A DNA stretch of 64,000 bases from Methanobacteriota archaeon (GCA_020696385.1 JAEHCQ010000006.1:96001-160000), one strand, 5' to 3'; counted from the first letter of the stretch, positions 25,992-55,999 are shown. The notes: generated from the sequence alone by a model not told the origin. Numbers and translations: made by a program.

Positions 25992-26375
25992 GTGATTACT
26001 TTGCCATCTACAATAGGTAAGAAAAAACCACATGCGAAAGGCTCCGCCAGAGAAGAACAATATCTTGATCTCGGGGCGATGGGATATGAAGATGAAAGTC
26101 TAGCAAAATTTGCAGGCTCATCTATCAAGATAGCTGAGATCTATCGTTTTGAGGATCTTAAGAACCTTACCAAATACCTATATGAGGGTCACACGATCAT
26201 TATAGATTATTCATCCTTGGCCAATGATGAGCTGATCATGAGAAGGATCACAAATGAGCTGAAAGCCATCACCGATGATACGAACGGTGATGTTGCAGGT
26301 ATTGGTCATCATATGTTATTGGCTACATCTAATGGCATAATGGTGGACAGGAACAAGATACGCGGTTCCTATTGA
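25992..26375 (+). CDS. sepF: Cell division protein SepF (archaeal)
   Basis: YLDL near the N-terminus, IKIAEI..FEDL, G.TIIID, GDVAGIG and LLATSNGIMVDR match the SepF core. Start could be TTG 26001. Confidence 0.8.
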   Translation: MITLPSTIGKKKPHAKGSAREEQYLDLGAMGYEDESLAKFAGSSIKIAEIYRFEDLKNLTKYLYEGHTIIIDYSSLANDELIMRRITNELKAITDDTNGDVAGIGHHMLLATSNGIMVDRNKIRGSY

Positions 26376-27184: not shown

Positions 27185-28129
27185 TTATATTGTGAATATC
27201 AGGACAGCTACGGCGAATCCAAGTATGGCGCCTGTATTCAGCAATGGCAATCCAGCTTGAGGATTCCCTCTCATGACGAACTTCATCAAGGCCATGAAGC
27301 CGATCAGGCCTCCGATTATTGTTGCCATGGCCACCATTGTACTTTCAAATGTTGGTCCACCATTGGAGAAGAAAGTATAGGCCGATACAGCGAGACTGCC
27401 CGGGATGATTATATCACCCAGACCCATGAACATCGCCTCTATCTTCTTTTTCTTCTTCAAAGAGGATTTAATACCTTTCTGGTCCCTGAAGGAATAGTTC
27501 TTTGATTTGGGAACCACCAGGAGCACTGGTAAATGCTGTTCAGTGACCGCATCTGCCAATGCTATCATGTGTTTTGTCTTGTAGACTGCTATGGCGTCAT
27601 AGATCGCCAGACCTATCAGAAGTATGAGGATCGGGTATAGTCCAAGTGAGATACCCAATATCGCGGTAACTCCTGCTCCAATGATTATACCCAGGGTGTT
27701 AACGACATACCATTCAGGAAATTTGTAAAGGATATATGTCAGGATAACTGAGATCACAAAGGCAAGTAGATTGATGAAGGCTATCAGTGAATCCTGAGAC
27801 CATGCTGGCGGTGGATTTCCTCCAATATACCACACTATGTAAAATAGAGGTAATAGAAGTACGGAATACAGGGCAAGGCATGATGCGAAAAGGATCAGCA
27901 ACTGAACGAAATTCTTTTTGCCAGCCTTGATTAATAAGAGAATAACACCCGTGAAAAGCAGTATGATGACCATGTACATGATGGGGTTCATGGGATCTTC
28001 TGGATCCTCGAAGGCCTGATAGCCCGCATCGGACATCGGGCCCGAAATAAGAAGAGCCAGTATCTGGGTGAATACAAAAATAGCTCCCATCCCGATGATG
28101 GAATATATCTCGCCTTTGGACAGGGCCAT
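27185..28129 (-). CDS. Presenilin-family intramembrane aspartyl protease (PSH)
   Basis: IYDAIAVYKTKHM (YD), MGLGD (GxGD), PQAGLPLLN, multiple TM segments. Confidence 0.93.
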   Translation of the reverse strand: MALSKGEIYSIIGMGAIFVFTQILALLISGPMSDAGYQAFEDPEDPMNPIMYMVIILLFTGVILLLIKAGKKNFVQLLILFASCLALYSVLLLPLFYIVWYIGGNPPPAWSQDSLIAFINLLAFVISVILTYILYKFPEWYVVNTLGIIIGAGVTAILGISLGLYPILILLIGLAIYDAIAVYKTKHMIALADAVTEQHLPVLLVVPKSKNYSFRDQKGIKSSLKKKKKIEAMFMGLGDIIIPGSLAVSAYTFFSNGGPTFESTMVAMATIIGGLIGFMALMKFVMRGNPQAGLPLLNTGAILGFAVAVLIFTI

Positions 28130-30785: not shown

Positions 30786-32084
30786 TCAGATAATTTTCTC
30801 CCACTTGAACAGATCGAGGACCTGTGAGAGCGTGCTACCACGTTTTATCTCTTCTCTAACACGATTCTCTCTCTCAAATACATCCAGTGCCCGGTTGGCT
30901 ATCTCGACTGCAACATGCTTTGGAATGACGACAATACCTGTTTCATCACCCACTATCCAGTCGCCAGTTCTTACCTTCTGACCACCACAAACAATGTCAA
31001 TTCCAATCTCGCCATGTCCTTTTGGCTCGCCTGCACATGGTCGTAGATGTCTGGCAAAAGCAGGGAAATCCATATTCTGGATCTCGTCAATGTCTCGAAT
31101 TGCTCCATCAATGACCACTCCTGAAAGCTTTCTCTGTTTACAACTCCATGATGCCAATTCTCCCCAGACAGCTATCTTTCCACTTCCTGCATCGATCACA
31201 AGAACATCGCCTTCATTTGCTCCGTCAATGGCCTCAACTGGCTTTGCCCAATCACCGTCAATGGTCCTGACGGTGAAGGCTCTTCCGATCATCTTTCCAT
31301 TCCTCTTGATATATGGCTTGATGTTGACCATGGCTCCTTCTTTGTGCATGGCATCTGATATGTTAGGCGTGGATACCTTTTCCAGTGCCTCCCTTATGCT
31401 CTCCGCACTGTATTTCTTGAAAAGATCTGTACTGACTGGTATCATCTCATCAATGGCCTTCTGAATGTCTGCAGTTGCCTTTGTTACATCATTCGCTTTG
31501 ATGATCGCTCCTCCGACAATGATGATCGAAGCACCATTGGCGATGGCTGTTGACGCGGTCTCTGAATTTATCCCGCCTGCAACCGCGATAGGTAATTTCG
31601 TGATCTGATAAAGCATCTTGACAAGATCAAATGGTTCTCCGCCAGTCATTTGATGATCAATGCTCGCGTGCACGCAGAGAATGTGCACGCCGAAGCCTTC
31701 CAGCTGTCTAACACGCTCCTCCATATTGTCCACGTTCATCAGGTCCGCCATTACAAGTGAACCGTACTGGCTGGCAGATTTTACAGCTTCCGTGATAGTC
31801 CCGTCATCTGACAATCCCATGATTGCCACGACATCCGCGCCAGAGCGTGTGGCCATCTCGACCTCCACTCCGCCGACATCCATCGTCTTCATATCCGCGA
31901 CGATGGTCTTGTCCGGGAACTCGGCTTTTAATCTTCTAATAATATTCATGCCCTCGCTCTTTATCAGGGGAGTTCCAGCTTCTATCCAATCGGCTCCGCC
32001 TGCAACGGCTTCCCTGGCTATCTGTATCGCGCGATCTCCTTGAATAAGGTCCAGGGCTACCTGGAGCTTGACCTTTGATGTCAT
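30786..32084 (-). CDS. hxlA: 3-hexulose-6-phosphate synthase fused to an RraA/HMG-aldolase-like domain
   Basis: LQVALD, WIEAGTPLIKSEG, ADMKTMD and AVAGGI (HPS). STPNISDAM, AVWGEL, DGAIRD and GDWIVGDETG (RraA). Start at ATG 32084. Confidence 0.93.
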   Translation of the reverse strand: MTSKVKLQVALDLIQGDRAIQIAREAVAGGADWIEAGTPLIKSEGMNIIRRLKAEFPDKTIVADMKTMDVGGVEVEMATRSGADVVAIMGLSDDGTITEAVKSASQYGSLVMADLMNVDNMEERVRQLEGFGVHILCVHASIDHQMTGGEPFDLVKMLYQITKLPIAVAGGINSETASTAIANGASIIIVGGAIIKANDVTKATADIQKAIDEMIPVSTDLFKKYSAESIREALEKVSTPNISDAMHKEGAMVNIKPYIKRNGKMIGRAFTVRTIDGDWAKPVEAIDGANEGDVLVIDAGSGKIAVWGELASWSCKQRKLSGVVIDGAIRDIDEIQNMDFPAFARHLRPCAGEPKGHGEIGIDIVCGGQKVRTGDWIVGDETGIVVIPKHVAVEIANRALDVFERENRVREEIKRGSTLSQVLDLFKWEKII

Positions 32085-32214
32085 TGATAACATGTAGAGA
32101 AGATGAGAGATAAAAGTTTTGCGTAGTATCTCAATAACCAAATTCCTGCATAAACAATATATGAAAGATTGGATATAGCGGCTTCCAGAGACCAATAATA
32201 ACACAGGTGATACA

Positions 32215-33688: not shown

Positions 33689-34759
33689 TTATACTCCTTC
33701 GCTTTCGTATTTTCTTACCAGCCTGCGCAAAACTTCAACGCTGAAGCTCTCTTCCTCGAAGGGCTGCTTCCTCATCCTGTGGGGTAGAGCCATTTCCGCG
33801 GCCACGATAACATCGTCCGCAGTGGATTCCAGATGGCCTTCAAGAGCGGCATTGGTCCTCGCTGTCTTCTCAATTATTATATCGCCTCTGTGGCCATCTA
33901 TATTGAAATCAATTCCCAGTCTTGTGATTATCGAGAGTATGTGGTCAGGAGTGGTTACGTTGGCAAGAATTTCCCTCGCTTCCACTATGGTCTTCTTCAA
34001 TTCCTCTATATCGTCCTTGAATTCTTCTCTGAAAAGCCATGGATCACTGGCAAAGGCCTTTGTCTTTTTGATTATCTCCACCCTCTGCTCGACATTGTCA
34101 ATGCCCTTTACCTCTGCCTGAAGTGCCAGACGGTCAAGCAACTGTGGTCTCAATTCTCCTTCTTCAGGGTTCATACTTCCGATAAGAATGAACTTGGATG
34201 GGAAGTTAAGACTTATTCCCTCTCTCTCAACGGTAACAACGCCCATTGCTGCTGCATCCAGAAGCACATCGACTATATTGTCCTCAAGTAGATTTATCTC
34301 ATCCACATACAGGATGCCTCTGTGAGCCTCTGCGAGTATTCCCGGTTCAAAGGCCTTAACACCCTGTGACAGAACTTTTTCGATGTCTATGCTGCCTACA
34401 AGCCGGTCCTCCGTGATATTAAGCGGAAGATCTACCACATTGATCGGAACCCAAGTCTCTTGGATTTCTCCTTTTTCATGCTTGGCCTTACATTCAGTAC
34501 AGTATTTTTCAGGATCCTTTGGGTGACAATTCAATTTGCACCCATCCACGATCAAGATCTCCGGGAGAATATCCAATAAAGCTCTAACAGCGATGGATTT
34601 GGCCGTGCCTTTTTCGCCCCTGATCAATACACCGCCCACATTTGGATTGATGATATTCAGCAAAAGGGCTTTTTTCAAAACTTCCTGGCCAACTATGCCA
34701 TTGAATGGGTATACAACCCTTTTCGGTTGAGCTTTGGATCCACTTTGTTCAGTATCCAT
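33689..34759 (-). CDS. ChlI/BchI-type AAA+ ATPase (soluble)
   Basis: [68 protein letters not shown] and ALPHR. Confidence 0.92.
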
Positions 34760-34772
34760 TTTGCACACCCGC

Positions 34773-37700
34773 TTATTCTAGATCGGCTTCCCTCTTATCA
34801 ATAAGCCTTCTTAGCATTTCTTCACTGAATTCTTCATCATCTTCGAATGCCCTTCTCTTCATCCTGTGTGGCAGGGCCATTGAGGCAGCTACGATAATAT
34901 CTTCTGTGGATGTTTCCATTCTACCTTCAAAGGCCGCGTTTGCACGTGCCGCCCTCTCTATTATGATATCCGCTCTGTGGCCATCGACATTGAAGTCCAT
35001 GCACACCTGAGCAATTAGCTTGAACATCCTTTCTGGAGTGGTCACCTTGGATAGAAGTCCATTCGCTCTTTCTATCTTATCGACCAGTTCTTTCCTCGAT
35101 GCCTCGAACTTCTCCCTGAATTTCAATGGTTCCGAGGTGAACTCTTCACGACGTCTCACAATATCTATCCTCTTACCAACATCTTTGATACCGATAACAT
35201 CAGTCTGTAAAGCGATCCTGTCCAATATCTGTGGTCTCAATTCACCTTCTTCAGGGTTCATACTTCCCACGATCAAGAACCTTGATGGATGGCTCAGACT
35301 GATTCCTTCTCTTTCAATAGTGACAATGCCAGAACCTGCTGCATCAAGTAAAATATCAACTATATAATCATCCAGCAGGTTTATCTCATCAACATACAGG
35401 ACACCTCTATGAGCCTCGGCAAGTATGCCCGGCTCGAAGGATTTCACACCTTCTGTAAGAACTTTCTCGATGTCTATACTTCCAACGAGACGATCTTCAG
35501 TAACATTCAATGGCAGATCAACGACCTGGACCTGTCTCGTGTGGACCTTTAAATTACCTGCCTTGTGTCTGGCCGCACATTCTGTACAGAATTTATCTTC
35601 TTCCTTTGGATCGCAATTGAACTTACATCCTGTGACCTCGATATCTGGAAGGATCTCAGATAGCCCTCTGACCGAAACAGATTTTCCGGTTCCTTTCTGT
35701 CCTCTGATTAGAACCCCGCCGATCTCGGGATAAATTGCATTGAGAGTAAGTGCGCTCTTCATCTTTTCCTGGCCAACCATGGCGGTGAATGGGAATAGAA
35801 CACGCTTCTGCTTACCTCTGTCAAGCATCTTGTTTGCAGCCTCTTTAAGCTTCAGCTTGTCTTCCTCATCCATTCTGTGTCTCATCTGACTTTCCAGCTC
35901 AGTTCGGAGATTCATCATCTCCTGCTCTTTCATTCTTAATTTTTCTCTATTGTCATCGAGCAGGTTCTTCTGAATGTCCAGTTCACTTCTTGAATGGATC
36001 AGTTCCTCTTCCTTCATCTTGAGCTTCTCTTCCTCCTCCATCATCATGTCATCCGCACGTTTCTCCAGCTCTGTCTGGATGAGACTTTCCATCTCTTCTT
36101 CCTTCATACGTAGCTTTTCTTCCTCTTCAGCCATGTGCTGGGTCTTGAGCTCCAATTCTGAACGTATGGCAGAGACCTCTTCCTCCTTCATTCGGAGTTT
36201 CTCTTCTTCCATCTGGATCTGGTCTGAAAGTGATTCTAATTCTGTCTTGATCTCATTGATCTCTTCATCCTTGAGGCGTAATTTCTCTTCCTCTTCCTGG
36301 ATCATCTGTTCATAATTTTCTTCCAGCTTCTGCTGTATCTCCTCAATTTCCTCTTCCTTTTCTAGATAAAGTTCAAGCTCATCTCTTGAATTATCTGCAA
36401 GGACATCTGGGTATTTGAAAAAGATCAGGTAGAAATCAAGGATAATTACCATAATAAGAATGATGAGAGTTATCGTTATAAGGATCAAGTCACCTTGAAG
36501 GAATTGGGAGCTATAGGCCACATCCATACCAAGACCAATGGCCATGAGGCTTGATGGGATCAGTGATATTACGAGATTGGCCTTTCGATCCCAGAAATGA
36601 AGTATGGCGGAGCTCATTGATAATAACATGGCGAGAAGTAGGATCGATATGCTTGAGATATTACCAAAGGTCGGAACAAGGCTGAATGATACGGACGGTA
36701 CTCCCGTATCATTAATCATATTGGTCACTATAAGTATGAATTCGACCAGAACGAATATGGCAAGGAATATGTAGAAAAATAATGTTATCAAACTCATATT
36801 GTAATAATTGAAGAAACCGTCCTTCTTCTTTTCTTCATCAAGTATCTCATCGATCTCTTTCTTCTTTTTTCGATCCCTGATCTTTGCCTCTATCTTGTCT
36901 TTTTTCATCTCGGCCTTTGGATCATATTCATCTTCAAGTCCATCAGAGTCGGGATCTGCATCCATATCTTCTGGATCGTCAATGTCGCCAGCTTTCTTTT
37001 TGCCTTTCTTACCCCATCTGGATGCCTTTTTCTCTTTTGCTTTTGTATCTTCTTTTGGTTCTTCATCCACTTCTATTTGATCGTCATCTGGTGTTTCTTC
37101 CACTTCCTCGTCTGAGACTGTTTCATCTTCAACACCGTCCTCTTCAACAACATCTTCAGTGGTCTCTTCTTCGACCTCTTCTTCATCAATAGTATCTGGC
37201 TCAAATGTTGTAAGGTCTGTATAACAATTAGAACATATCTCGGCTGTTTTATCGATGCCCTTTGCACATGATGGGCATCTCTTTGAATGGGTTAGGTCAT
37301 AGTCACAGATCGGGCACTTTTCACTGTCTGTGTTGATAACATCATCACACGATGGACAGAGCATCTGATCATCCTCTATTATGATTTCCTCGATCTCCTC
37401 ATCTGGATCACTGTCCTCTTCTTCTATGATCTCTTCTTCCTCTTCCACAACCTCATCTTCGGTTATGTCCATTTCCTGGCCAGGATCATCATCATCTGTT
37501 TCATCATCCTCATCAACTGTTAAGGACTCATCTGGAGAATCTCCTCCGATCGTTCCAAGATCCCATTCGCCAGAGCTCTCATCTGATTCTTCTGATGCAA
37601 CCTCTTCTTCCTCTGGGTTTTCTTCGATCTCTTCATCTCCAAGATCAAGGTCTAGCTCTTCTATGGTTGAATCTACATCATCATCAAGATCCAGATCACT

Positions 37701-37847
37701 TAGATCAAGGCTGTTAGAATTATCTTGCTCTTCTTCTATGATCTCTTCTTCTTCATCAACAGGCGGCAGGTCAGCTCCACAATTGCTACATTCGGTTGTC
37801 GAATCGTCGTATGTCAGTGCTTGGCACATGAGGCATATTCTATCCAT
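34773..37847 (-). CDS. Membrane-anchored ChlI-type AAA+ ATPase with zinc ribbons, acidic tracts, 4 TM and coiled coil
   Basis: Six CxxC motifs (three ribbons), D/E-rich tracts, four hydrophobic segments, [11 protein letters not shown] repeats and a C-terminal AAA+ with GQKGTGKS and LYVDEINLL. Confidence 0.88.
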
Positions 37848-37863
37848 TTTTAACCTACCATTC

Positions 37864-38544
37864 TTATTTTCCTGTTTCTATCAATTTTGCTAATTTATTA
37901 CTGTTCAATCGCCTGTATACGATAAAGCCAGCTCCGAGCAATGCAGCCATGAATGAGATACCTATTGGCACGTTCACATCCTCGTCGAAATATGGTGGGA
38001 TCTCATAATCTGCCGAGAACGGCCCCTGATAACCACATCTGGCCTCTTTCATATCATAGGCATCGATCTTGATGACATCTCCTGAGAATTGGGTTAATGC
38101 AAAGCTAACATTCAGTCCAATGGGGTCAATTGAATTATCCTCCCACTCGCCTATATGATATGGGAGATACACTGAATTATCTTCATCCAGGTAATTCCCG
38201 GTAGTCTCAACCCAATCAATGACAGCAATTCTTGCATTCAAGTCCGTGTACTGCTTATAGGTTATATTGCAGATCTCATGGCCATTTCCATCCAGAACGA
38301 CCAAAGTTATGTTGTAAATGTCACTCCAGCCATTCAGATCCCTCAATGAGATATGAACCATTATTAGACCATTGTGATCATCCACAAATACATCGACCAT
38401 TGAGGGTGGATCATTGGATACACCAATACCACCGGCCTGAGCATCAACAATGTCTGGCAAATAGACAAAAGCAAGGCTGAACACTAACAACAAACTGAAT
38501 ATTTTTCCAATTGTGATTGGATTCATCCTCCTCCCGTTTGACAT
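37864..38544 (-). CDS. Secreted, C-terminally membrane-anchored hypothetical protein
   Basis: Signal peptide (IFSLLLVFSLAFVYL..VDA), beta-rich acidic domain, C-terminal TM followed by RR. Confidence 0.8.
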   Translation of the reverse strand: MSNGRRMNPITIGKIFSLLLVFSLAFVYLPDIVDAQAGGIGVSNDPPSMVDVFVDDHNGLIMVHISLRDLNGWSDIYNITLVVLDGNGHEICNITYKQYTDLNARIAVIDWVETTGNYLDEDNSVYLPYHIGEWEDNSIDPIGLNVSFALTQFSGDVIKIDAYDMKEARCGYQGPFSADYEIPPYFDEDVNVPIGISFMAALLGAGFIVYRRLNSNKLAKLIETGK

Positions 38545-38619
38545 AGATACCCCTCTGAACATTTAAAATCGGGTTTGTATAACATATACTTTATTATATA
38601 TATTAATTATCCATAGAAC

Positions 38620-40041
38620 TCAAACCCATTTTTTCTTCTTTCGTCGCTTGTAGCCTGAACCTCCTTTTTTCTCGGCTTTCTCTTCTTCTTCCTTTCTTTT
38701 TCTTTCTTTCTCTGATTTGTGACCTTGATATGCCATTATCAGGAATGCCAATACAATTCCTACAATGATCAATGATATTGCCAATATGTTCATTGGGCCA
38801 AGTCCGACATCTTCTTCCTCCTCCAGAAAGGTCTTGGCCTTGACCACAATGGTTGTTGTGAATTGGCCGGAGTTTGCGAAATCATCGGTCTCAGCCATGA
38901 AATTAACGTAGGCCAGCATAGATGGCTGACCTCTTGGTGGGGCAATTGAACAATTAATAGTTACAAGCATATGGGTCTCTGTATCTGAAGATACCTGTGC
39001 ATACACTGGCTGTGTTACTTCAATATCATTTTGAAGTATATTGACAAGGGAGAGTTTATCTACCTCTGTAGATAGATGGCTATCCTTTGTTCCAGTTAAG
39101 TAAAGATCGAGCCCCAGCTCATCATTGTAATCTGCGATCAACCTGCTTTTGTATTGGACCACCAAACCAGACATTTGGAAGATATCATATCCGGGTCTAG
39201 CCACCTTGACGATCACATTGAATGCAGATTCTGGTGCAAGTATGAATGATATCATGGTCGGTGTCACCAACATCTTTGGCTCCCCATGTATCCTACCTTT
39301 TACAGTGAATTCTCTTGGACTCCATTTCTCTGCTCTGAATGCTATATGATGAACTCTCTCCTCACCCAGGTGACTTATGCCAGTGGAGTTGGTAGTTGTG
39401 AATAACTCATCATAATCATCATATGATATATCAAAGTCCATAGGAACGTTGCCTGAGTTCTTTGTTGTGAAATAAGTGGTATTCTGTGGATCATCTTGCA
39501 TGTATGAATCGATCGAATCCGTTTGGAAAGGAGACACATTGAAATAGAAATTCGGACCTGAAAATGCTATGCCAGACACTGGTGCTTCCACTATGAAGGT
39601 CTCATTCCATTCTTGAATTGCCTGGTCATCAACGATTATCGAAAGGATCCATTGTCCTGGCGTGGCGTTCCCAATCATACCAAGATAAAAGCAATATGTA
39701 TTTTCATAGACACTGGACAGGTCGGAATTTATGAAATCAGTGTACAAATGATCAGTCCAGATAGAATTATTGTAGGACCAATGATAGTAATTCGTTATAT
39801 CCGTGTTATTATGTTTTATGGAATAGGCGTACACATCAATAGTATTGGCTGGCGAGTTCAATTCAATGGTCAGATTGTGCAAAACACCCGCAACTGTGAT
39901 ATCCATTCCATCACGCTGTCTTAACACCTCTCCCGATATGCGAAGCTCCACCGAATCGACCAGCTGGGCCTCGGCAAATGTTGGAATAATGGATATTAGA
40001 AATAATAGACTCAATATTATAGCCAAAGGTTTCTTGATCAT
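38620..40041 (-). CDS. Secreted, C-terminally membrane-anchored surface protein
   Basis: MIKK plus hydrophobic segment plus AEA signal, sequon-rich beta ectodomain, C-terminal TM and highly charged tail. Start at ATG 40041 after GGTGA. Confidence 0.82.
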   Translation of the reverse strand: MIKKPLAIILSLLFLISIIPTFAEAQLVDSVELRISGEVLRQRDGMDITVAGVLHNLTIELNSPANTIDVYAYSIKHNNTDITNYYHWSYNNSIWTDHLYTDFINSDLSSVYENTYCFYLGMIGNATPGQWILSIIVDDQAIQEWNETFIVEAPVSGIAFSGPNFYFNVSPFQTDSIDSYMQDDPQNTTYFTTKNSGNVPMDFDISYDDYDELFTTTNSTGISHLGEERVHHIAFRAEKWSPREFTVKGRIHGEPKMLVTPTMISFILAPESAFNVIVKVARPGYDIFQMSGLVVQYKSRLIADYNDELGLDLYLTGTKDSHLSTEVDKLSLVNILQNDIEVTQPVYAQVSSDTETHMLVTINCSIAPPRGQPSMLAYVNFMAETDDFANSGQFTTTIVVKAKTFLEEEEDVGLGPMNILAISLIIVGIVLAFLIMAYQGHKSEKERKRKEEEEKAEKKGGSGYKRRKKKKWV

Positions 40042-43864: not shown

Positions 43865-45652
43865 CTACTCGACTGTAACGCTCTTCGCCAGATGCCTTGG
43901 TTTGTCTATTTCGCAATTCCTTGCATCCGCGACATAGTAAGACAGCAACTGCATGACCACACTTGTCAATACTGGTGTGAAAAGATAATGCACATCCGGT
44001 ATAGGAATGACCTCATCAACATACCGCTTCAGCTCCTTATCGCTCTGATTGCCGATACCAACAACTGGAGAACCTCTTGCAGCCACTTCCCCTATATTTC
44101 CAAGCATTTTCTCATAAGTGTAATCCTTGACAGCGACCGCGATCACAGGGGTTTTCTCGGTTATAAGGGCGAGAGGCCCGTGCTTCAATTCACCACCAGG
44201 GTATCCTTCTGCATGGATGTAGGATATCTCCTTCATCTTCAATGCCCCTTCCAATGCAACAGGATAATTTATGTTGCGGCCGAGGAAGAACATGCTCTGT
44301 GAATCCGCGATCTTCTCAGCGATCCTTTTGATGTTATCTGCATTGTTGAGGATGGTCTTAACTTGCTTTGGCAGATCTCTCAATCTATTGATCATCCGCC
44401 TTGCTCTGTCCGGGCTGAGCGAACCATTTGCCCGGCCGAACCTTATTCCAAGTATGTACATGGCGATTATCTGTGTGATGTAGGTCTTTGTAGCCGCAAC
44501 ACCTATTTCCAGATCCGCCCTTGTGTAAAATGTCTCATCAGTTTCTCTTGTCAAAGTACTGCCCACGATATTCACGATGCTCATGGTCCTGAGACCGCGT
44601 CTTCTCGCCAATCTTACCGCGGTCATTGTGTCAAGTGTCTCACCACTTTGACTTATCGCGATTACCAATGGCCTTTCACCTGCATCTGCCAGGAATCTGT
44701 ACTCAGATGCTAGCTCAACAGTTACAGGGATCTTCGCAAGATTCTCGATAATATGTTTGCCCACAAATCCTGCATGGTATGATGTGCCGCAGGCGATTAT
44801 CTTGATATTGGAAATATGATTGCTATTGGCGTAGCTGTCGAAGTTCAACACTTCTCCCAAAAGCGTATTATGAATTGCTTTTGGTTGTTCGAATATCTCC
44901 TTCAACATGAAATGCTCATATCCCCCTTTCTCGGCTCCATCAAGGGTCATGTCAACCTTTTGCCAATCCCTTTCTACCGGATCTCCATCAAAGGTTTGGA
45001 TCTCAACACCTTTGCTCGTGATGGCGACGATCTCCTCGTCAAGAAGATAGATCATTTTGTTAGTATATTCGAGAACCGCGGGTACATCCGACGCTATGAA
45101 ATTTTCATTATGTCCTACACCGACGATCAATGGACTTATCATCCTTGCTCCGACAACTTTATCTTTTTCGAAAGTTGTTATTGCAACAATTGCATAACTT
45201 CCTCGCAATCTTTTGACCACTTTTTTCATGGCATCTTCGAGATTATCCTCATAATAATTTTCCAAAAGATGCACGATGACTTCTGTGTCAGTTTCGGATG
45301 AGAAGATATGCCCTTCTTTCATTAGCTCGTCCTTTAATTCATTGAAATTATCGATGATACCATTGTGCACAATTGCAAATTTTCCTTTGCAACCCTTGAA
45401 CGGATGTGAATTATTTTTGATGGGCTTACCATGTGTTGCCCATCGAGTATGTCCGATACCTTGTGTACCTTTAAAATCTGGTGTGATATTGATAAGATGA
45501 TCGATGTCTCCCTTGTCCTTGAAGACATTTAGCTCATCATTGATGACAGCGATACCTGCGGAATCATAACCTCTGTATTCGAGTCGCTTTAGGGCATTCA
45601 ATAAGATGTCCTTTGCCGCTTTTGGCCCGGTATATCCAATTATTCCACACAT
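43865..45652 (-). CDS. glmS: Glutamine--fructose-6-phosphate transaminase
   Basis: MCGIIG, LEYRGYDSAG, GHTRWATHG, SQSGET, EGALKMKE and DKPRHLAKSVTVE. Confidence 0.98.
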   Translation of the reverse strand: MCGIIGYTGPKAAKDILLNALKRLEYRGYDSAGIAVINDELNVFKDKGDIDHLINITPDFKGTQGIGHTRWATHGKPIKNNSHPFKGCKGKFAIVHNGIIDNFNELKDELMKEGHIFSSETDTEVIVHLLENYYEDNLEDAMKKVVKRLRGSYAIVAITTFEKDKVVGARMISPLIVGVGHNENFIASDVPAVLEYTNKMIYLLDEEIVAITSKGVEIQTFDGDPVERDWQKVDMTLDGAEKGGYEHFMLKEIFEQPKAIHNTLLGEVLNFDSYANSNHISNIKIIACGTSYHAGFVGKHIIENLAKIPVTVELASEYRFLADAGERPLVIAISQSGETLDTMTAVRLARRRGLRTMSIVNIVGSTLTRETDETFYTRADLEIGVAATKTYITQIIAMYILGIRFGRANGSLSPDRARRMINRLRDLPKQVKTILNNADNIKRIAEKIADSQSMFFLGRNINYPVALEGALKMKEISYIHAEGYPGGELKHGPLALITEKTPVIAVAVKDYTYEKMLGNIGEVAARGSPVVGIGNQSDKELKRYVDEVIPIPDVHYLFTPVLTSVVMQLLSYYVADARNCEIDKPRHLAKSVTVE

Positions 45653-50020: not shown

Positions 50021-53000
50021 TTACCAGTTGACTGTCCAGGTTCCGCCTACTGCGACATAGACCCAGTACGCTTCGCCACGCTGGAGGACATAATTGTCCG
50101 CCAGGGTCACGATATCGTATGGTCCAGCACCGTAGCCTTCAACCATGGATGCACCAGTTGCCAGCTTCAGATCACCTACATCGTAGGTTGAATCATCCTG
50201 TGCAGGGTAACCGACAAGATTCCAACCGGAGCTCAGAGTAATATCTGTGCTTGTTGGCTCATATCCGTCTCCAACAGACAGGAGTGCTCCTGCTGTTGTG
50301 AGTTTCACCCACATACCCATTGCGTTACTAACGCTTGGCATGTCCTGTGTGATTCCTGCTGCTGCCTGTGCTTTGTCATAGGTCTTCCAGTGGTCGACTT
50401 CAATTGGGTTGTACCAAGTGATGATCTCCCATGTGGTGTCACCATTGCCCCAGTTCGCATCATCGAGAACTGTTAGAACATCGCCGGATGCAGTTATTGG
50501 GAAGGATACGAATATCCAGTCTCCTGCTCCTGCTCCACCAGTGTCTATATCATATGGCACTGCTGGTGCTCCGCCTGGTTCCTGCACTTCATTGGTGTTT
50601 GTGTCCTCATTGGATGATGTATCAACTGCTCTAACAACATACCACCAAAGTGTGGCGTCTGCCTGGCCTCTACCCATGTCCACATAGCTTGTTGTTCCAT
50701 ATGGAACAGAACCTATTAAGGACCATGGGCCGCCTGGGTTTGCGTCACCAGATCTGTAGATGTTGTAAGACATGGTGTCTGGAGATACCGAGTCAGTCCA
50801 GCTGATTGTATTGTGGTCTGCAGGGTTTCCAGCAATAGACCAGCTGAAGCCGGCTATGTTGGAGTTTGCTGCTGCTGATCCCCAATCCAAGTGACTGCCA
50901 CCCTGACCTCCACCGGATACCGTACAATCATAGCTGACGGTCCACTGGGATGCATCAAGCTGTGTAGCTCCAAGAACTTCTGTTGTGAAGGTTGCTCTGA
51001 GTGTTCCTGGTGGGTTGGTTGCTGCTGCATATAGTTCAACAACTATTGAGTCGCCTGCATCTAATATGGTTAGAGGTGGTGTCCATGTTCCAGAGTGTAA
51101 TCCGGTAGTGGTGCCACCGCCGACAGCCGATACTGCTGTTGTCAGTTGTGTCTGTACACCGGCGCTGTTCCTCTGGTACACCCTTATTCCACCGTACACT
51201 GGCTGCCAGTTTCCGAGGGAAGGTGTCTCAATTGTTGTAGATGACTGGGTAGTTCCAAGTGAGTAGGCTGTCAATGAATTGACAGTTACTTCATTGGCCA
51301 CACCTCTGAAGAACCTCTGTTCTGTTGTCATGGAACCTGCTGGCCCATCCTGTACAACTGTAAGTCCGGTCACCGGTGTTGGTGGTGTGGTGTCAACAGT
51401 TGTGAAGGTCCAGGTAACCGATTGTGTTGATCCTGTTCCATCAGTTGCTATTGCATACCAGTTGTATACGGTTGCTGAGGTCAGTCCTATTGCACCTGTT
51501 GTGGCTGTGGCACCGCTTGCAACTCCATTCACTGTTGCGAATGGGGTTCCGCTGTCCCAGTAGAACACAACATCCATCGAATCTGATTCATAATCTGAAA
51601 CATCTACGCTGAATGCCTTGCTTACTGCTACATCAAGCTCACCATCGAATGGGTCTGGGTTCATAGGTTCGTATGGACGTCTTGGTGAATCAATGAAGAT
51701 CTGAGTCTCTGCCCAGGCTCCCCAGTTGTTTGCTGCATCCATTCCTTGTACCCAAATCTTGTGCCATCCACCAGCCCAGCCAGTAGTGTCTATTGAGGTA
51801 GTACTCTCAACAGCCTCTGCTGGTGAGTTGAATGAACCATCCATTGTGTCCATGCCAACTGGTGTTGGGTTCACATCGGTCTTGTACTGAGCATCTGCGA
51901 CATTGCTACCGCCAGTTGTCCATTCGTGTACATTACCTACGACTACGACAGTGTCACCTGGAATACAGAGAACCTTGTCTGTTGAGACATATTCTGTAAT
52001 TGGTCCAACGGTGTCCGTTGCTGATTCCCAGCCATTGTAAACATGCATGGCTATGATATCATGACCGCCTTCCTTGGTGAACTGGTTCTGTGCTATCAAC
52101 ACTGTGTTGGAGTTCTCCCATGATGCAGATCGCTGCTTGCCCTTGACAAAACTGTCTAGAGTCAAGTACTGTATCTTTGTAGCTGCTCCACCTGTGTAAT
52201 CGTCGTCATAGAACATCAGCATGTTGGTCTGACCGTATGGGTCGTACCTTATGTTTCTGTGCATGAACACGTAGATGTAGTCATCTGCTGTGTAATCCAA
52301 GTCCAGAAGGAACCTTGTTCCATAATCGTGGTCACTTGCTACAGGTCCGTATGGTCCGTATCCAGCATTTCCATTGTTCTCAAAGCTGACACCATTATCA
52401 TCGGAGTACATAACAACGACACTTCGGTCGCCATCTGTGTTCGCACCCTTGAGGTAAGCTCCATACTGCCTGTTATTGGAGGCACCCTGGTTTGCTGCTA
52501 CACCCTGTGGGAACATCATGTTATCTGGTGAATCCAGAGCCATTCTTACTGCGCTCCATGATCCATCGTAGTACTGGAATGTTGCATCCCTGTCCTGTGC
52601 TGCATCTCCACTGTCTCTCTCATAATACCAGAGAGCTATGTTACCTGCAAGGTCTGTGTATGCATGCGGGAAGAAATAGAACATACTCGCGACACCTGGA
52701 TCGATCTGCGTGAATGCAGACCAGGTAGCTCCTCCATCTGAGGATGACTTTCCAGTAGTAGATATCGATACCTGTGTAGCTGTCATCAGATCAGTACCTG
52801 AATATCCAAAGTCCTCTACAACAAGGTAGAATTGTTCTCCGTTTGGATACCATACTATGTTGACAGTTCTGTAAGTATCCCTGCCGCCACCTTCAACTCC
52901 TTCACCAAGTGCGTATGCATCTGATTCAGTCCATGATGTGTATGGGAAATCTGCATAATTCACCTTGATGTAAGAACATCTTGTATCGGCTGTACTACCA

Positions 53001-55999
53001 CCATATCCATCGGGATTCCATGCATTGTACGCTATTGCTATCCTGCCTGCATTAGGTCCATTTGAAGCCCTTGCTATTCCTAAATAGCCTGGTGTCCATG
53101 AATCCTGAGATATTGGTATTGGGGTACTCCATGTAAGACCACCATCGCTGGATAATGTGAAGTATGCCTTGTCACCGAAGTTCTCATCCTGCCTGTAGGT
53201 ACATGCAACATAATCATTACCGCCTGATTCCCAGGAGGTAAATGCTGGTGCGTCCTCGTGCACTGGCGCGTCAGCTATCTTCCACTGTGTGGGTGTCTTC
53301 TCTGTGACCACATCCACTTGGAAAGCTATAGTTGACTGTGCGATAGGTGCGGATGCATCATTGTTGGATGTTGCAGTTAGTGTAACAGTGTATGTTCCAG
53401 CTGCGACTGCTCCGACATTGATCCTTGCATATCCGTGTACCCTCTCATTGACTCCTACTGAAAGACCAGATGCTGGGAAGTAAGCTGCTGTGAAACCACC
53501 TGGGACAGATGATGTGATCGTGTAAGAATCTGCTGTTGATCCACCATTGTTAATCCAGTATGGCACAATTACGCTACCACTTGGAGCACACTTGAACACT
53601 CCTTCTCCGTATCCATCTGTTTCAGGAACCACTCTTGGTGTGTCCAGGTTCATGCTTACCTTGTAAACATTGTCTCCTGCGTTCACATCAGAAGCTGTGT
53701 TCATTCCACCAGTCATAGCAATTGACCATGGGAATGCTGCGCCAGCCTTTAGGATGATATCTATGTCCCATGTTCCTACCCTTGGCTCAGCGATGGTAAA
53801 GACCTCTACGTTGTTTATATCGTCACCGCCGTCATCGGCTGTGTCGAAGTCGTAGCTTGCCCCGCCCATCCAGGTTGGATAAGCTGCATTTGACCAGTCA
53901 CCGGCAGTTGGTACAGGGGTGGACTTTCCTTCTTTGAAAGCATTTCCTTCATACCTTGTTCCATCTGGAGCGGTAACAACCAGGTCATAGTCTGTTGACA
54001 ATGCACCTGCGGAAGTTGTGTCCCAGTGTGAGAAGGTGATCTTCAATGGTACGCTCTCATCTGTAACGACCATGTCGAATCCCATTGTTGAGTCATCTGT
54101 TGTACCTGTTGTTCCACTGGAGTGGTACCACTGCAATGTGTTTGGTGCAGGTGGACAGATCGAGTTCCTCACATTGACACGTCCCCATCCCTGATCGTTG
54201 CTTGGGTATCCGTGTCCCATGTCAACGGCTCCGTGGATAAGGAGAGTCTTCAAAAGGTTACCGTGTGGTGTGATGCCAACGACATCCACCAGGTAGTCCC
54301 TTATAAGGGCTGTGTCACCAGCTGCTGCTGGGCAAGCCATTGAGGTTCCCTGAAGTGAAGCGTAGTCACCTATGCCATCACCGTCTTCATCCATGATCGT
54401 TATCAGATCATACAAACCTGGAAGTTCGGCTTCTGCTGTGTCATCAGATTTGACAGAGTAAACAGCTGTTCCGGACTCGACAATATCTGGTTTGATCCTG
54501 TCATCGCCTGGACCTGCTGGACCTCTGCTACTGAAACTGGCCATCTGGCCGTAGTTATCAGATGAATCGAAGTCGATAGCACGCATGTTCTCTGCTGCAC
54601 CCACTGAAACTGCAAGTTTACCGTTTCCGGATCCGCTTGCTGTCAATGTCCTTGGACCGTCGTTTCCGGCGGCGAACAGAACAATGGAGTTTGCATTTGA
54701 TTCCATGAAGTTGTCTGCTGTCTGGTCATATCCTGAAGACATAGTAGCTGGTCCCCAACTGTTGGTGAAGATCCTTGCACCAAATGTATAACCTGATGAC
54801 CACTCTGTGCTGACCAAGCCAGCTCTGAAGTAGATTGTTGCCTCTGGAGCCCTACCTGCAAATCCTGCCCTGTCTGGGCGGCCTGCGGGGTTGGTTGCGG
54901 CTAACTCATTGTAAAGCCTGTCTGTAGAGCTTAGACCGAGGTATTCCTCCATCATTCCACCGTCTCCAGCAACTGTACCTGTAACGTGAGTTCCATGGTA
55001 CTCTGCATCGGATGTTGAATCTGGGTTCTCAAGCCTGTCGCCTAATGGACCCTGGATGAAATCCGCATGAGTTGAGTCTATTCCAGAATCCTGGACGTGG
55101 ACGATCTGACCCTGACCTGCTATGTCCTGTGGTAGATTGGATATGTCACGGTCCCACAGATCCCATGCCTGAGATATTCTTCCTCCTACGTTGTTAAGGA
55201 GTTTCATCTCTGGCAGGTACCATACCTGATCGACAGATTCCAGTTGTGCAACATCGGCTATCAATGAAGCGTCAACTGTACACAGTACATCACCATAGTT
55301 GGTGTCTGTAACGTCCCATGCACCGAGGCTGCTCAGTTCATTCATGATCTGTGCGGCACTAATGCCTGGGAATGGGTTGATGGTCATCTGGATAGTTCCG
55401 ACCTTTCCATTGAGTTTTGCATCTACTTTGAATGCTGGCTCGTATGGTCCGACCCACTGAACATAGTCCAGATTCTCTACATTGGCCTTCTCGGCAGAGT
55501 TCATCTTGGCGACGACTGCATTGTCGTTGATGTATCTCCTGATACCGCCTGTGTTGGACTCTATTCCATCAAACCAGACCTGATTGCCTGGTGTGACGAA
55601 CTGTACGATGTAGTTCTGTGTTCCAGTGTTCTGGAATCTTGCTGGAACATTGTATCCAGTCTCTGTGTTGAAACTGATATCCTGTTCCAGGAATTTCATC
55701 TGTGTCCTTTCCTGAAGGTCCACGACGCTCATTCTGTTTGAGAGTGCTCCTCTCTGGGAATTTGTTACTTTAACATAGGCTCCCCATTCGTTCAAGCTCA
55801 CTATTTCGGTTCCACTGTCCTGTAATTCTCTGGCTTGTTCTGGTGTATCAAAAGTCACCAGGACAAAATCTGTGGATTCTACTGCATCGACCGAATTATC
55901 GCCAAGATTTGACGCTAATATCGACCAAGACATAGAGACCATAGAGATTACAACAATCATAGAAACCACTGTTGATAATTTCTTGTTTTCATTGCCCAA
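50021..55999 (-). CDS. Large secreted S8 subtilase with Asp-box repeats, Ig/FN3-like domains and a C-terminal GWNLVGYP repeat domain
   Basis: Signal peptide and prodomain, VQDSGID, HGTHVTG, AAGNDG, SSRGP, KPD and GTSMACP all intact. SxDGGxTW repeats. TTG start after GGAGG. Confidence 0.93.
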   Translation of the reverse strand: MGNENKKLSTVVSMIVVISMVSMSWSILASNLGDNSVDAVESTDFVLVTFDTPEQARELQDSGTEIVSLNEWGAYVKVTNSQRGALSNRMSVVDLQERTQMKFLEQDISFNTETGYNVPARFQNTGTQNYIVQFVTPGNQVWFDGIESNTGGIRRYINDNAVVAKMNSAEKANVENLDYVQWVGPYEPAFKVDAKLNGKVGTIQMTINPFPGISAAQIMNELSSLGAWDVTDTNYGDVLCTVDASLIADVAQLESVDQVWYLPEMKLLNNVGGRISQAWDLWDRDISNLPQDIAGQGQIVHVQDSGIDSTHADFIQGPLGDRLENPDSTSDAEYHGTHVTGTVAGDGGMMEEYLGLSSTDRLYNELAATNPAGRPDRAGFAGRAPEATIYFRAGLVSTEWSSGYTFGARIFTNSWGPATMSSGYDQTADNFMESNANSIVLFAAGNDGPRTLTASGSGNGKLAVSVGAAENMRAIDFDSSDNYGQMASFSSRGPAGPGDDRIKPDIVESGTAVYSVKSDDTAEAELPGLYDLITIMDEDGDGIGDYASLQGTSMACPAAAGDTALIRDYLVDVVGITPHGNLLKTLLIHGAVDMGHGYPSNDQGWGRVNVRNSICPPAPNTLQWYHSSGTTGTTDDSTMGFDMVVTDESVPLKITFSHWDTTSAGALSTDYDLVVTAPDGTRYEGNAFKEGKSTPVPTAGDWSNAAYPTWMGGASYDFDTADDGGDDINNVEVFTIAEPRVGTWDIDIILKAGAAFPWSIAMTGGMNTASDVNAGDNVYKVSMNLDTPRVVPETDGYGEGVFKCAPSGSVIVPYWINNGGSTADSYTITSSVPGGFTAAYFPASGLSVGVNERVHGYARINVGAVAAGTYTVTLTATSNNDASAPIAQSTIAFQVDVVTEKTPTQWKIADAPVHEDAPAFTSWESGGNDYVACTYRQDENFGDKAYFTLSSDGGLTWSTPIPISQDSWTPGYLGIARASNGPNAGRIAIAYNAWNPDGYGGSTADTRCSYIKVNYADFPYTSWTESDAYALGEGVEGGGRDTYRTVNIVWYPNGEQFYLVVEDFGYSGTDLMTATQVSISTTGKSSSDGGATWSAFTQIDPGVASMFYFFPHAYTDLAGNIALWYYERDSGDAAQDRDATFQYYDGSWSAVRMALDSPDNMMFPQGVAANQGASNNRQYGAYLKGANTDGDRSVVVMYSDDNGVSFENNGNAGYGPYGPVASDHDYGTRFLLDLDYTADDYIYVFMHRNIRYDPYGQTNMLMFYDDDYTGGAATKIQYLTLDSFVKGKQRSASWENSNTVLIAQNQFTKEGGHDIIAMHVYNGWESATDTVGPITEYVSTDKVLCIPGDTVVVVGNVHEWTTGGSNVADAQYKTDVNPTPVGMDTMDGSFNSPAEAVESTTSIDTTGWAGGWHKIWVQGMDAANNWGAWAETQIFIDSPRRPYEPMNPDPFDGELDVAVSKAFSVDVSDYESDSMDVVFYWDSGTPFATVNGVASGATATTGAIGLTSATVYNWYAIATDGTGSTQSVTWTFTTVDTTPPTPVTGLTVVQDGPAGSMTTEQRFFRGVANEVTVNSLTAYSLGTTQSSTTIETPSLGNWQPVYGGIRVYQRNSAGVQTQLTTAVSAVGGGTTTGLHSGTWTPPLTILDAGDSIVVELYAAATNPPGTLRATFTTEVLGATQLDASQWTVSYDCTVSGGGQGGSHLDWGSAAANSNIAGFSWSIAGNPADHNTISWTDSVSPDTMSYNIYRSGDANPGGPWSLIGSVPYGTTSYVDMGRGQADATLWWYVVRAVDTSSNEDTNTNEVQEPGGAPAVPYDIDTGGAGAGDWIFVSFPITASGDVLTVLDDANWGNGDTTWEIITWYNPIEVDHWKTYDKAQAAAGITQDMPSVSNAMGMWVKLTTAGALLSVGDGYEPTSTDITLSSGWNLVGYPAQDDSTYDVGDLKLATGASMVEGYGAGPYDIVTLADNYVLQRGEAYWVYVAVGGTWTVNW

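Follow-up and report, generated by a model that had tools for sequence, protein, structure and literature searches.

We describe a four-gene cassette, S1-S2-A1-A2, at positions 33,689 to 40,041 of a 64,000-nucleotide stretch of DNA (the window; JAEHCQ010000006.1:96001-160000, or G000:C47:96001-160000 in our numbering) from the 2.28-Mb, 50-contig, 94.5% complete genome of a Methanobacteriota archaeon (GCA_020696385.1). The cassette encodes two surface proteins, a membrane-bound AAA+ ATPase of the ChlI type, and a soluble paralogue of that ATPase. We propose, with a probability of roughly 0.5, that it is the ATPase-equipped form of a surface module specific to Thermoplasmatota, and that it acts as an ATP-driven, membrane-spanning actuator of surface-protein anchoring. 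We build the proposal on how the genes are ordered and how widely that order is kept, both of which we observe, together with their domain architecture, the state of the motifs, the topology predicted for the proteins, and their co-occurrence across genomes. The four open reading frames (ORFs) are co-oriented, all on the minus strand:

38620..40041, minus strand: S1, 473 aa from the ATG at 40041; secreted, C-terminally anchored protein
37864..38562, minus strand: S2, 232 aa; secreted, C-terminally anchored protein
34773..37847, minus strand: A1, 1024 aa; membrane-bound ChlI AAA+ protein
33689..34768, minus strand: A2, 359 aa; soluble ChlI-type AAA+ paralogue

As longest ORFs, the genes are separated by gaps of 57, 16, and 4 nt. 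An earlier interpretation of this DNA (the sequence-only reading) had four co-oriented genes with gaps of 75, 16, and 13 nt, and we reproduce these values from alternative ATG starts within the longest ORFs, because its S2 begins at the seventh codon and its A2 at the fourth, both of them ATG.

Conservation of the Cassette

We compared 36 loci, with all cassette parts mapped by tblastn, and found S1-S2-A1-A2 complete and in the same order at 22 loci from 22 genomes (the window counted), spanning nine families of uncultured Thermoplasmata (f1-f5, f12, f14, f15, and f18); five more loci are cut at contig ends and have a consistent order. Among the loci with readable upstream sequence, none carries an A1 gene without S1 and S2. 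Gene-order conservation on this scale exceeds chance by far, and the four genes are a conserved unit, as had been suggested: with 22 complete loci and no counter-example, the surface-protein genes are not unlinked from the ATPases in relatives.

The membrane and coiled-coil part of A1 occurs in 35 of the 301 sampled genomes of the class. Among 5.8 billion, just 40 protein clusters share this architecture, and their annotation goes no further than Mg-chelatase subunit I or ATP-binding protein. Relatives of the membrane and coiled-coil part, among the matches listed, come from uncultured Thermoplasmata or from metagenome-assembled genomes of Methanomassiliicoccales. The cassette is flanked upstream by NMD3, DUF424, and MCM (the first two assigned by Pfam, MCM by eye) and downstream by a convergent cysteinyl-tRNA synthetase (CysRS) gene, identified by eye; these housekeeping flanks are common to members of the same genus, and the GC content of the cassette is similar to that of the neighboring genes. 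Judged from the shared flanks and from the mirrored topology of the A1 and A2 branches in the tree described below, the cassette is vertically inherited.

A1 and A2 Are ChlI-Type ATPases

A1 combines the following parts, from the N to the C terminus:

37779..37835, minus strand: first zinc ribbon (CxxC...CxxC), cytoplasmic, residues 5-23; kept in orthologues (tblastn, A1 residues 1-30)
37359..37778, minus strand: D/E-rich tract, residues 24-163; 71 D+E and 0 K+R per 140 residues
37224..37358, minus strand: double zinc ribbon (DZR), residues 164-208; PF12773 and PF13248 below cut-off here, with Pfam matches in orthologues
36378..36827, minus strand: four-helix membrane domain (TM4), residues 341-490; from hydropathy and alignments A3 and A5
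35808..36377, minus strand: coiled coil, about residues 490-680 (~190 residues)
34773..35807, minus strand: ChlI-type AAA+ module, about residues 681-1024 plus the stop codon; from Pfam, NCBIfam, the motif table, and the tree

A second charged tract lies between the double zinc ribbon and the transmembrane (TM) helices, and the D/E tracts give a net charge of about -104. Hydropathy places four hydrophobic segments within residues 348-483, followed by a coiled coil in which EE(E/D)KL(R/K)(M/L)K is repeated six times at a spacing of 28-30 residues, in agreement with the earlier description of one ChlI module tethered through four TM helices and a long coiled coil. In the alignment, the coiled coil is more conserved than the membrane domain.

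The two AAA+ modules are, as also noted before, closely similar (59% identity between the A1 module and A2). TIGR02030 (ChlI/BchI) matches A1 with E 1e-118 (396 bits) and A2 with E 2e-121 (405 bits), below the equivalog cut-off of 467, and we therefore regard both as members of the ChlI family, not as certified equivalogs. The Pfam families Mg_chelatase (PF01078) and AAA_lid_2 (PF17863) score above their cut-offs, and E values against the solved ChlI structures 8osf, 6l8d, and 1g8p range from 1e-97 to 5e-87 (A2 against 8osf, E 1.3e-97). No AAA_3/MoxR match (COG0714 / PF07726) is listed for A1 or A2, their best matches being ChlI, ChlD, and Cob-chelatase models.

The A1 module has canonical Walker A and B motifs, an arginine finger, and sensor II, as well as a CxxxC...CxxC insert. 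In the module alignment of all loci, Walker B is DE in 25/25 A1 orthologues and Walker A retains GK in 21/25, with the arginine finger and sensor II conserved. The earlier claim of intact Walker A/B and arginine-finger motifs in both ATPases thus stands for A1 and needs qualifying for A2: here the Walker A of A2 reads GEKGTAKS, with Ala replacing the usual Gly before Lys, and Walker B is DE, and among its orthologues Walker A is GK in 20/23 and Walker B is DE in 15 of 23 and DQ in the other 8.

In a quick maximum-likelihood tree, A1 (support 99, 24/25 rows) and A2 (support 97) form separate clades with mirrored internal branching, both apart from methanogen ChlI and from the ChlI/ChlD proteins that other Thermoplasmata encode with CobN; this tree does not resolve how the A1, A2, and methanogen ChlI clades join at depth. 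Outside the cassette, the named proteins closest to A2 are the 374-aa ChlI proteins of Methanococcoides and Methanolobus, at ~60% identity. Other archaeal ChlI fusions (P0081, P0084, P0154, and P0159) vary, having either an N-terminal zinc ribbon and TM helices or three double zinc ribbons without TM helices, and tethering of ChlI to zinc ribbons or to the membrane thus seems to be a wider theme.

S1 and S2 Are Anchored Ig-Like Proteins

By hydropathy, both S1 and S2 begin with a hydrophobic signal and have a single TM segment near the C terminus, followed by a cytoplasmic tail; in the alignments of 16-19 orthologues, the signal ends at an AXA-type cleavage site. Two signal-peptide proteins with C-terminal TM anchors and charged tails had been predicted, and hydropathy, orthologue alignments, and tail composition all agree with that prediction. 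The S1 tail is 32 aa long with K+R = 16, and that of S2 has a motif, YRRxxNNKLARxVE, conserved in an alignment of 16 orthologues; the strongly basic S1 tail forms a charge pattern with the strongly acidic cytoplasmic parts of A1. The ectodomains contain nine (S1) and three (S2) N-X-S/T sequons.

Neither protein has a Pfam or NCBIfam match. AlphaFold (AF2) models built from the alignments show three to four beta-sandwich domains and one long terminal helix for S1 (predicted local distance difference test, pLDDT, 86.4) and a single beta-sandwich flanked by two helices for S2 (pLDDT 82.2). The S1 ectodomain is thus modeled as three to four tandem Ig-like (CARDB/NEW3/ASH-like) beta-sandwiches and that of S2 as one. 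Foldseek matches of S1 are tandem Ig-like domains (ASH/hydin-type, integrin legs, and chaperone-usher pilins), with low TM-scores throughout, and the Atlas look-alikes of the S1 homologue P0166 are archaeal CARDB/NEW3/FixG_C surface proteins. A full hidden Markov model scan of 1.84 billion representatives found 254 relatives of S1 (107 at E <1e-30), the few named ones being hypothetical proteins of Thermoplasmata; S1 is matched in 23/41 relatives. The first domain of S1 (about residues 5-152) is also found at the N terminus of proteins of 814-1977 aa (P0302, P0305-P0308, P0311, P0312, and P0315).

The top Foldseek matches of S2 are archaeal type IV pilins and archaellins, and they are weak (TM-score 0.25-0.33, E about 1e-3). 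We considered S2 as a member of that family, for which a class III signal peptide and no C-terminal anchor would be expected, and ruled it out: S2 orthologues run from a hydrophobic core to an AXA-type site, a conserved mature N terminus (GIGVxNxxPxF), and a C-terminal TM helix, so that neither the signal type nor the anchor fits.

The Core Occurs with and without an ATPase

We further find S1-S2-TM4 without the ATPase. At six loci (L033, L069-L073) the TM4 protein is ~300 aa long and ends in an acidic tract and zinc ribbon or in a TPR-like tail, and at two minimal loci (L042, L043) it is a bare TM4 of 160-200 aa. The TM part is also matched in 18 of the 53 genomes of f46, a family of a second class of the phylum, and at the three f46 loci read (from genomes G551, G614, and G406; L089-L091) S1 and S2 are followed by a TM4 protein of 380-430 aa, whose C terminus is a PAS domain in two (L089, L091) and has no Pfam match in the third; in the same two loci the trio adjoins two archaellin-family genes. 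One Pro, one His (in an LH motif), and one Asp are invariant in the alignment of all TM4 forms, and TM4, like S1 and S2, matches no Pfam family. Since the trio occurs without it, the ATPase is one of several cytoplasmic modules carried by the same core.

S1-S2-TM4 trios are flanked by genes for secreted proteins of 345 to >1400 aa, which we call BigC. Their heads are variable (FG-GAP, Kelch, MAM, beta-helix, and laminin-G), and they share a C-terminal domain of ~290 residues ending in W..(D/N)IP.G...G.Y....TYTI. ATPase-free loci have the order small BigC, S1, S2, TM4; at loci with the ATPase form, BigC genes lie upstream of S1 in family f18, and in f5 and f15 they lie between S1 and the V-I3 genes introduced below. 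The source genome has an array of 12 co-oriented BigC genes (G000:C11:425030-466576; L086-L088) encoding proteins of 736-1783 aa with Kelch, MAM, or beta-helix/NosD heads or none recognized, and a LonB-like gene follows the array. The BigC domain occurs in 49 of the 301 genomes of the class sample, including 33 of the 35 with TM4, and in none of the large TM4-free families of that sample.

No Chelatase Large Subunit Is Found with the Cassette, Which Co-Occurs with V and I3

CobN/ChlH/BchH (PF02514) was not found in the source genome, at 94.5% completeness and with positive controls in five genomes. In the class sample, CobN is present in 40 of 301 genomes, from families f9, f20, f10, and f30 and with one weak match in f25, and in none of the cassette-bearing families, nor in any family to which one of the 35 genomes with the A1 membrane module belongs. 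Where CobN does occur, loci are conventional: ChlD has 612-664 aa (AAA-linker-vWA), and ChlI, of 341-349 aa, shows 45-49% identity with A2. Pfam scans of 41 ORFs of the window revealed no tetrapyrrole gene; three others (CysRS, MCM, and 43865-45652) were identified by eye only. The sequence-only reading had noted the lack of a chelatase large subunit and of tetrapyrrole genes near the cassette; both points hold, the first in the window, the source genome, and every cassette-bearing family, and CobN is confined to families without the cassette. Judged from gene content, the cassette is not a tetrapyrrole chelatase.

The same reading saw no vWA/MIDAS partner. This is correct for the window, which has no vWA gene, and does not hold for the contig: 61 kb upstream of the cassette, at G000:C47:65101-70372 (L013:5102-10373), lie three genes encoding V, I3, and a membrane protein. 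V (921 aa, no signal peptide) has a ChlD-type pre-vWA segment and a MIDAS vWA domain followed by two ChlI-like modules with dead Walker motifs, an order reversed relative to ChlD, and its MIDAS (DxSxS, T, D) is intact in 8/8 orthologues. I3 (365 aa) is ChlI-like with degenerate Walker A and B motifs. The third gene encodes a 312-aa single-pass membrane protein with a C-terminal double zinc ribbon, which may provide the system with another tether to the membrane. All five ChlI-type module types (A1, A2, I3, and the two in V) keep the four-cysteine CxxxC...CxxC insert.

V orthologues, whole or cut at contig ends, are present in 30 of the 32 genomes carrying the ATPase form (the exceptions being 83% and 64% complete), as is I3; V is also found in nine further genomes of the same or neighboring families, mostly incomplete. 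In G006 and G009, V-I3 immediately precedes S1 and shares its strand; in G005, G022, G029, G041, G043, and G065 it lies within about 20 kb of the cassette. Together these are eight genomes from six families.

Two other observations concern this neighborhood and the vWA search. Pairs of DUF835 and TPR proteins are encoded near the cassette or V-I3 in several families (L034:6032-9084, L038:10489-13936, L062-L065, and L085), and the source genome has such a pair elsewhere (G000:C22:96500-99635). A vWA domain also lies within an open frame of 8676 aa, encoding a giant protein, at G000:C11:126775-127101.

Proposed Mechanism

We infer every physical contact, the composition of the ring, the client, and the direction of action from gene order, architecture, motifs, predicted topology, and co-occurrence. 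S1 and S2 would be glycoprotein-like Ig-fold proteins held in the membrane by their C-terminal helices and grouped with the TM4 domain of A1, and the resulting S1-S2-TM4 complex would dock or anchor the secreted BigC proteins. In the cassette lineage, the TM4 subunit would have acquired a ChlI motor on a coiled-coil stalk. The A1 module, whose catalytic motifs are intact, probably forms a ring with A2, and by analogy with ChlI-ChlD, V and I3 may work with this ring in the role of ChlD, the MIDAS site of V gripping an acidic ligand, perhaps one of the acidic A1 tracts or an anchor tail. ATP hydrolysis would then be conveyed through the coiled coil to the membrane domain and change the state of the anchors, so as to load, release, or rearrange surface proteins from the inside out. 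A more specific version, in which the A1-A2 ring with I3 and V pulls or twists the six-repeat stalk, moves TM4, and so switches S1/S2, as surface receptors, between states that keep hold of the large, adhesin-like BigC proteins and states that let them go, is tentative, and we would sooner bet against it than for it.

Several findings weigh against the actuator proposal. The core occurs without an ATPase in other lineages, and the motor may therefore be regulatory or dispensable. If extended, the 190-residue coiled coil would keep the ring well away from the membrane, an arrangement as compatible with a tether as with a stalk that transmits force. In the source genome V-I3 lies 61 kb from the cassette and the BigC array is on another contig; as neither adjoins the cassette there, their links to it rest on relatives. 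Of the 49 genomes positive for BigC, 16 have no detected TM4; several of the 16 are incomplete, and some may hold a divergent TM4. In profile comparisons, S1 shows no similarity to BigC (probability 0.4%), and S2 matches BigC only weakly, over 35 columns (45%). Finally, all cassette hosts are uncultured.

Alternative Explanations

Known pairs of AAA+ and vWA proteins, such as RavA-ViaA, CbbQ-CbbO, NorQ-NorD, and CoxD-CoxE, are maturation factors, and the cassette could likewise encode a MoxR-vWA-like biogenesis or quality-control chaperone for the one-time assembly of S1-S2-TM4-BigC or the extraction of damaged, tail-anchored S1/S2. The intact MIDAS of V would suit such a role, as would the C-terminal anchors of S1 and S2, whose conserved tails a cytoplasmic machine could grip. 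However, the core is found without an ATPase at no fewer than 11 loci, so that its assembly needs no ATPase in general, and the explanation differs from the one we prefer in timing alone; we consider it rather unlikely. A flow of information in the opposite direction, with S1, S2, and BigC sensing contact or a ligand, TM4 relaying the signal, and the ChlI motor and V acting on a cytoplasmic target, would account for the fusion of TM4 elsewhere to PAS, a zinc ribbon, or a TPR-like tail, a variation typical of signaling membrane proteins, and for the binding-type domains in BigC heads. In the neighborhood, though, we found neither an output domain nor a conserved regulator gene, DUF835-TPR being nearby in some families only, and AAA+ motors of the ChlI clade are not known as signal outputs; such an outside-in sensor is unlikely, more so than the chaperone.

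The chelatase ancestry of the motor invites two further explanations. In one, a chelatase-derived motor would transport a divalent metal at the membrane, or insert it there, on behalf of surface proteins, with the help of two invariant TM4 residues (His and Asp) and of the polyacidic tracts (net charge about -104). Such a machine would fit the closeness of A2 to true ChlI (E 1.3e-97 to 8osf; ~60% identity to methanogen ChlI) and the ChlD-type, MIDAS-bearing vWA of V, yet neither CobN/ChlH nor any other partner of a chelatase was found, TM4 proteins exist that carry PAS or lack a cytoplasmic domain altogether, and searches of S1, S2, and TM4 detected no family of metal-binding proteins, which makes it improbable. 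That the system is a conventional class I Mg or Co chelatase whose large subunit was missed is the least credible of the explanations considered here, for all the strong ChlI matches and the ChlD-like partner in the genome: CobN/ChlH is found neither in the 94.5% complete genome nor, across 301 genomes, in cassette-bearing families, McrA was not found in the source genome, true CobN-ChlD-ChlI loci of other Thermoplasmata have a ChlD of normal layout and a ChlI 45-49% identical to A2, A1 is tethered to the membrane, and the cassette always adjoins surface-protein genes. Scarcely more credible is an antivirus or conflict system that diversifies surface receptors. The combination of vWA, AAA+, TPR, and zinc ribbon is a recurrent theme of conflict systems, and BigC genes form variable, multicopy arrays, but none of seven proteins matches a defense-system model of PADLOC (PADLOC-DB 2.0), the sole match being a weak one of A2 to the AAA+ part of RtcR--CARF_AAA_HTH (E 5.2e-05), which we read as generic AAA+ similarity; the apparent vertical inheritance, the housekeeping flanks, and the absence of any detected effector domain also argue against defense.

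Other Genes in the Window

The window also encodes a presenilin-type signal-peptide peptidase (27185-28129, minus strand), a SepF homologue (25992-26375, plus strand), and a fusion of an orotidine monophosphate (OMP)-decarboxylase/HUMPS-type domain with an RraA-like domain (30786-32204, minus strand). Two giant genes are divergent from each other: 50021-55999 (minus strand) encodes a secreted subtilase of 1992 aa, and 56334-63998 (plus strand) is an ORF of >2555 aa that runs past the end of the window and encodes a secreted protein that combines a WD40 propeller and beta-helix repeats with a subtilase domain. The profiles of S1, S2, BigC, and TM4 match neither of the two. We considered a known RNA or rRNA for the ORF-poor end of the window; Rfam returned nothing, and the stretch is a single giant ORF.

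Comparison with Known Systems

By homology, the closest known system is the class I chelatase motor (ChlI-ChlD(-ChlH), BchIDH, and CobNST). To our knowledge, no role has been described for ChlI/ChlD motors other than that of driving Mg and Co chelatases. A1 and A2 have ChlI-type modules, and V resembles ChlD in its pre-vWA segment, its MIDAS vWA domain, and its inactive AAA+ modules. The system differs from these chelatases in that no CobN/ChlH was found with the cassette, V is permuted (vWA, then two dead ChlI modules, instead of AAA-linker-vWA), and there are five distinct ChlI-type modules instead of two, all with the four-cysteine insert; in addition, the A1 module is fused to zinc ribbons, four TM helices, and a long coiled coil, and the cassette genes stand beside surface-protein genes, not tetrapyrrole genes. 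A ChlI engine would thus run here without a chelatase subunit, and of its five module types two appear active and three dead from their motifs.

In mechanical terms, FtsEX, MacB, and LolCDE also couple a cytoplasmic ATPase through four TM helices to extracytoplasmic domains without transporting a substrate; these are ABC ATPases whose outer domain is part of the TM protein, however, and no sequence relationship to the cassette was found. Midasin (Rea1) and dynein are single giant eukaryotic chains that act on ribosome precursors or microtubules. Midasin combines a helix-2-insert AAA+ ring with a D/E-rich region and a MIDAS domain, and dynein conveys conformational change along a long coiled-coil stalk to a distant binding site. 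In our system the corresponding parts are spread over several proteins, with a membrane domain at the far end, and we draw an analogy of design here, not one of membership.

Closest in theme is an archaeal MoxR-vWA surface or secretion system around arCOG01314, which was predicted from gene neighborhoods only and comprises a MoxR/GvpN (COG0714) ATPase, a secreted vWA protein, and pfam07760 membrane proteins (Makarova, Galperin and Koonin 2015, PMC5898192). It shares with the cassette the same broad AAA+ clade together with vWA and an association with membrane and Ig-like surface or S-layer-type proteins; in contrast, the ATPase of the cassette is of the ChlI type and itself anchored in the membrane, V has no signal peptide, and S1, S2, and TM4 belong to no Pfam family. 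Neither a ChlI tethered to the membrane nor this cassette is described in the literature searched (related arCOGs may be listed in the supplements of PMC5898192), and the envelope module carrying the AAA+/MIDAS motor appears to be undescribed.

The analysis defines three protein families without a Pfam entry (S1, S2, and TM4) and a new surface-protein anchor domain (BigC), and offers a handle on the surface organization of wall-less or poorly known Thermoplasmatota, for which the TM4 series (no tail, zinc ribbon, PAS, and AAA+) provides natural built-in comparisons. If our proposal is right, an AAA+/MIDAS motor has been reused for archaeal envelope biology. Should the stalk-switching version also hold, this would be the first nonchelatase role for ChlI/ChlD, and the machine would combine features of integrin inside-out activation with those of the dynein stalk.

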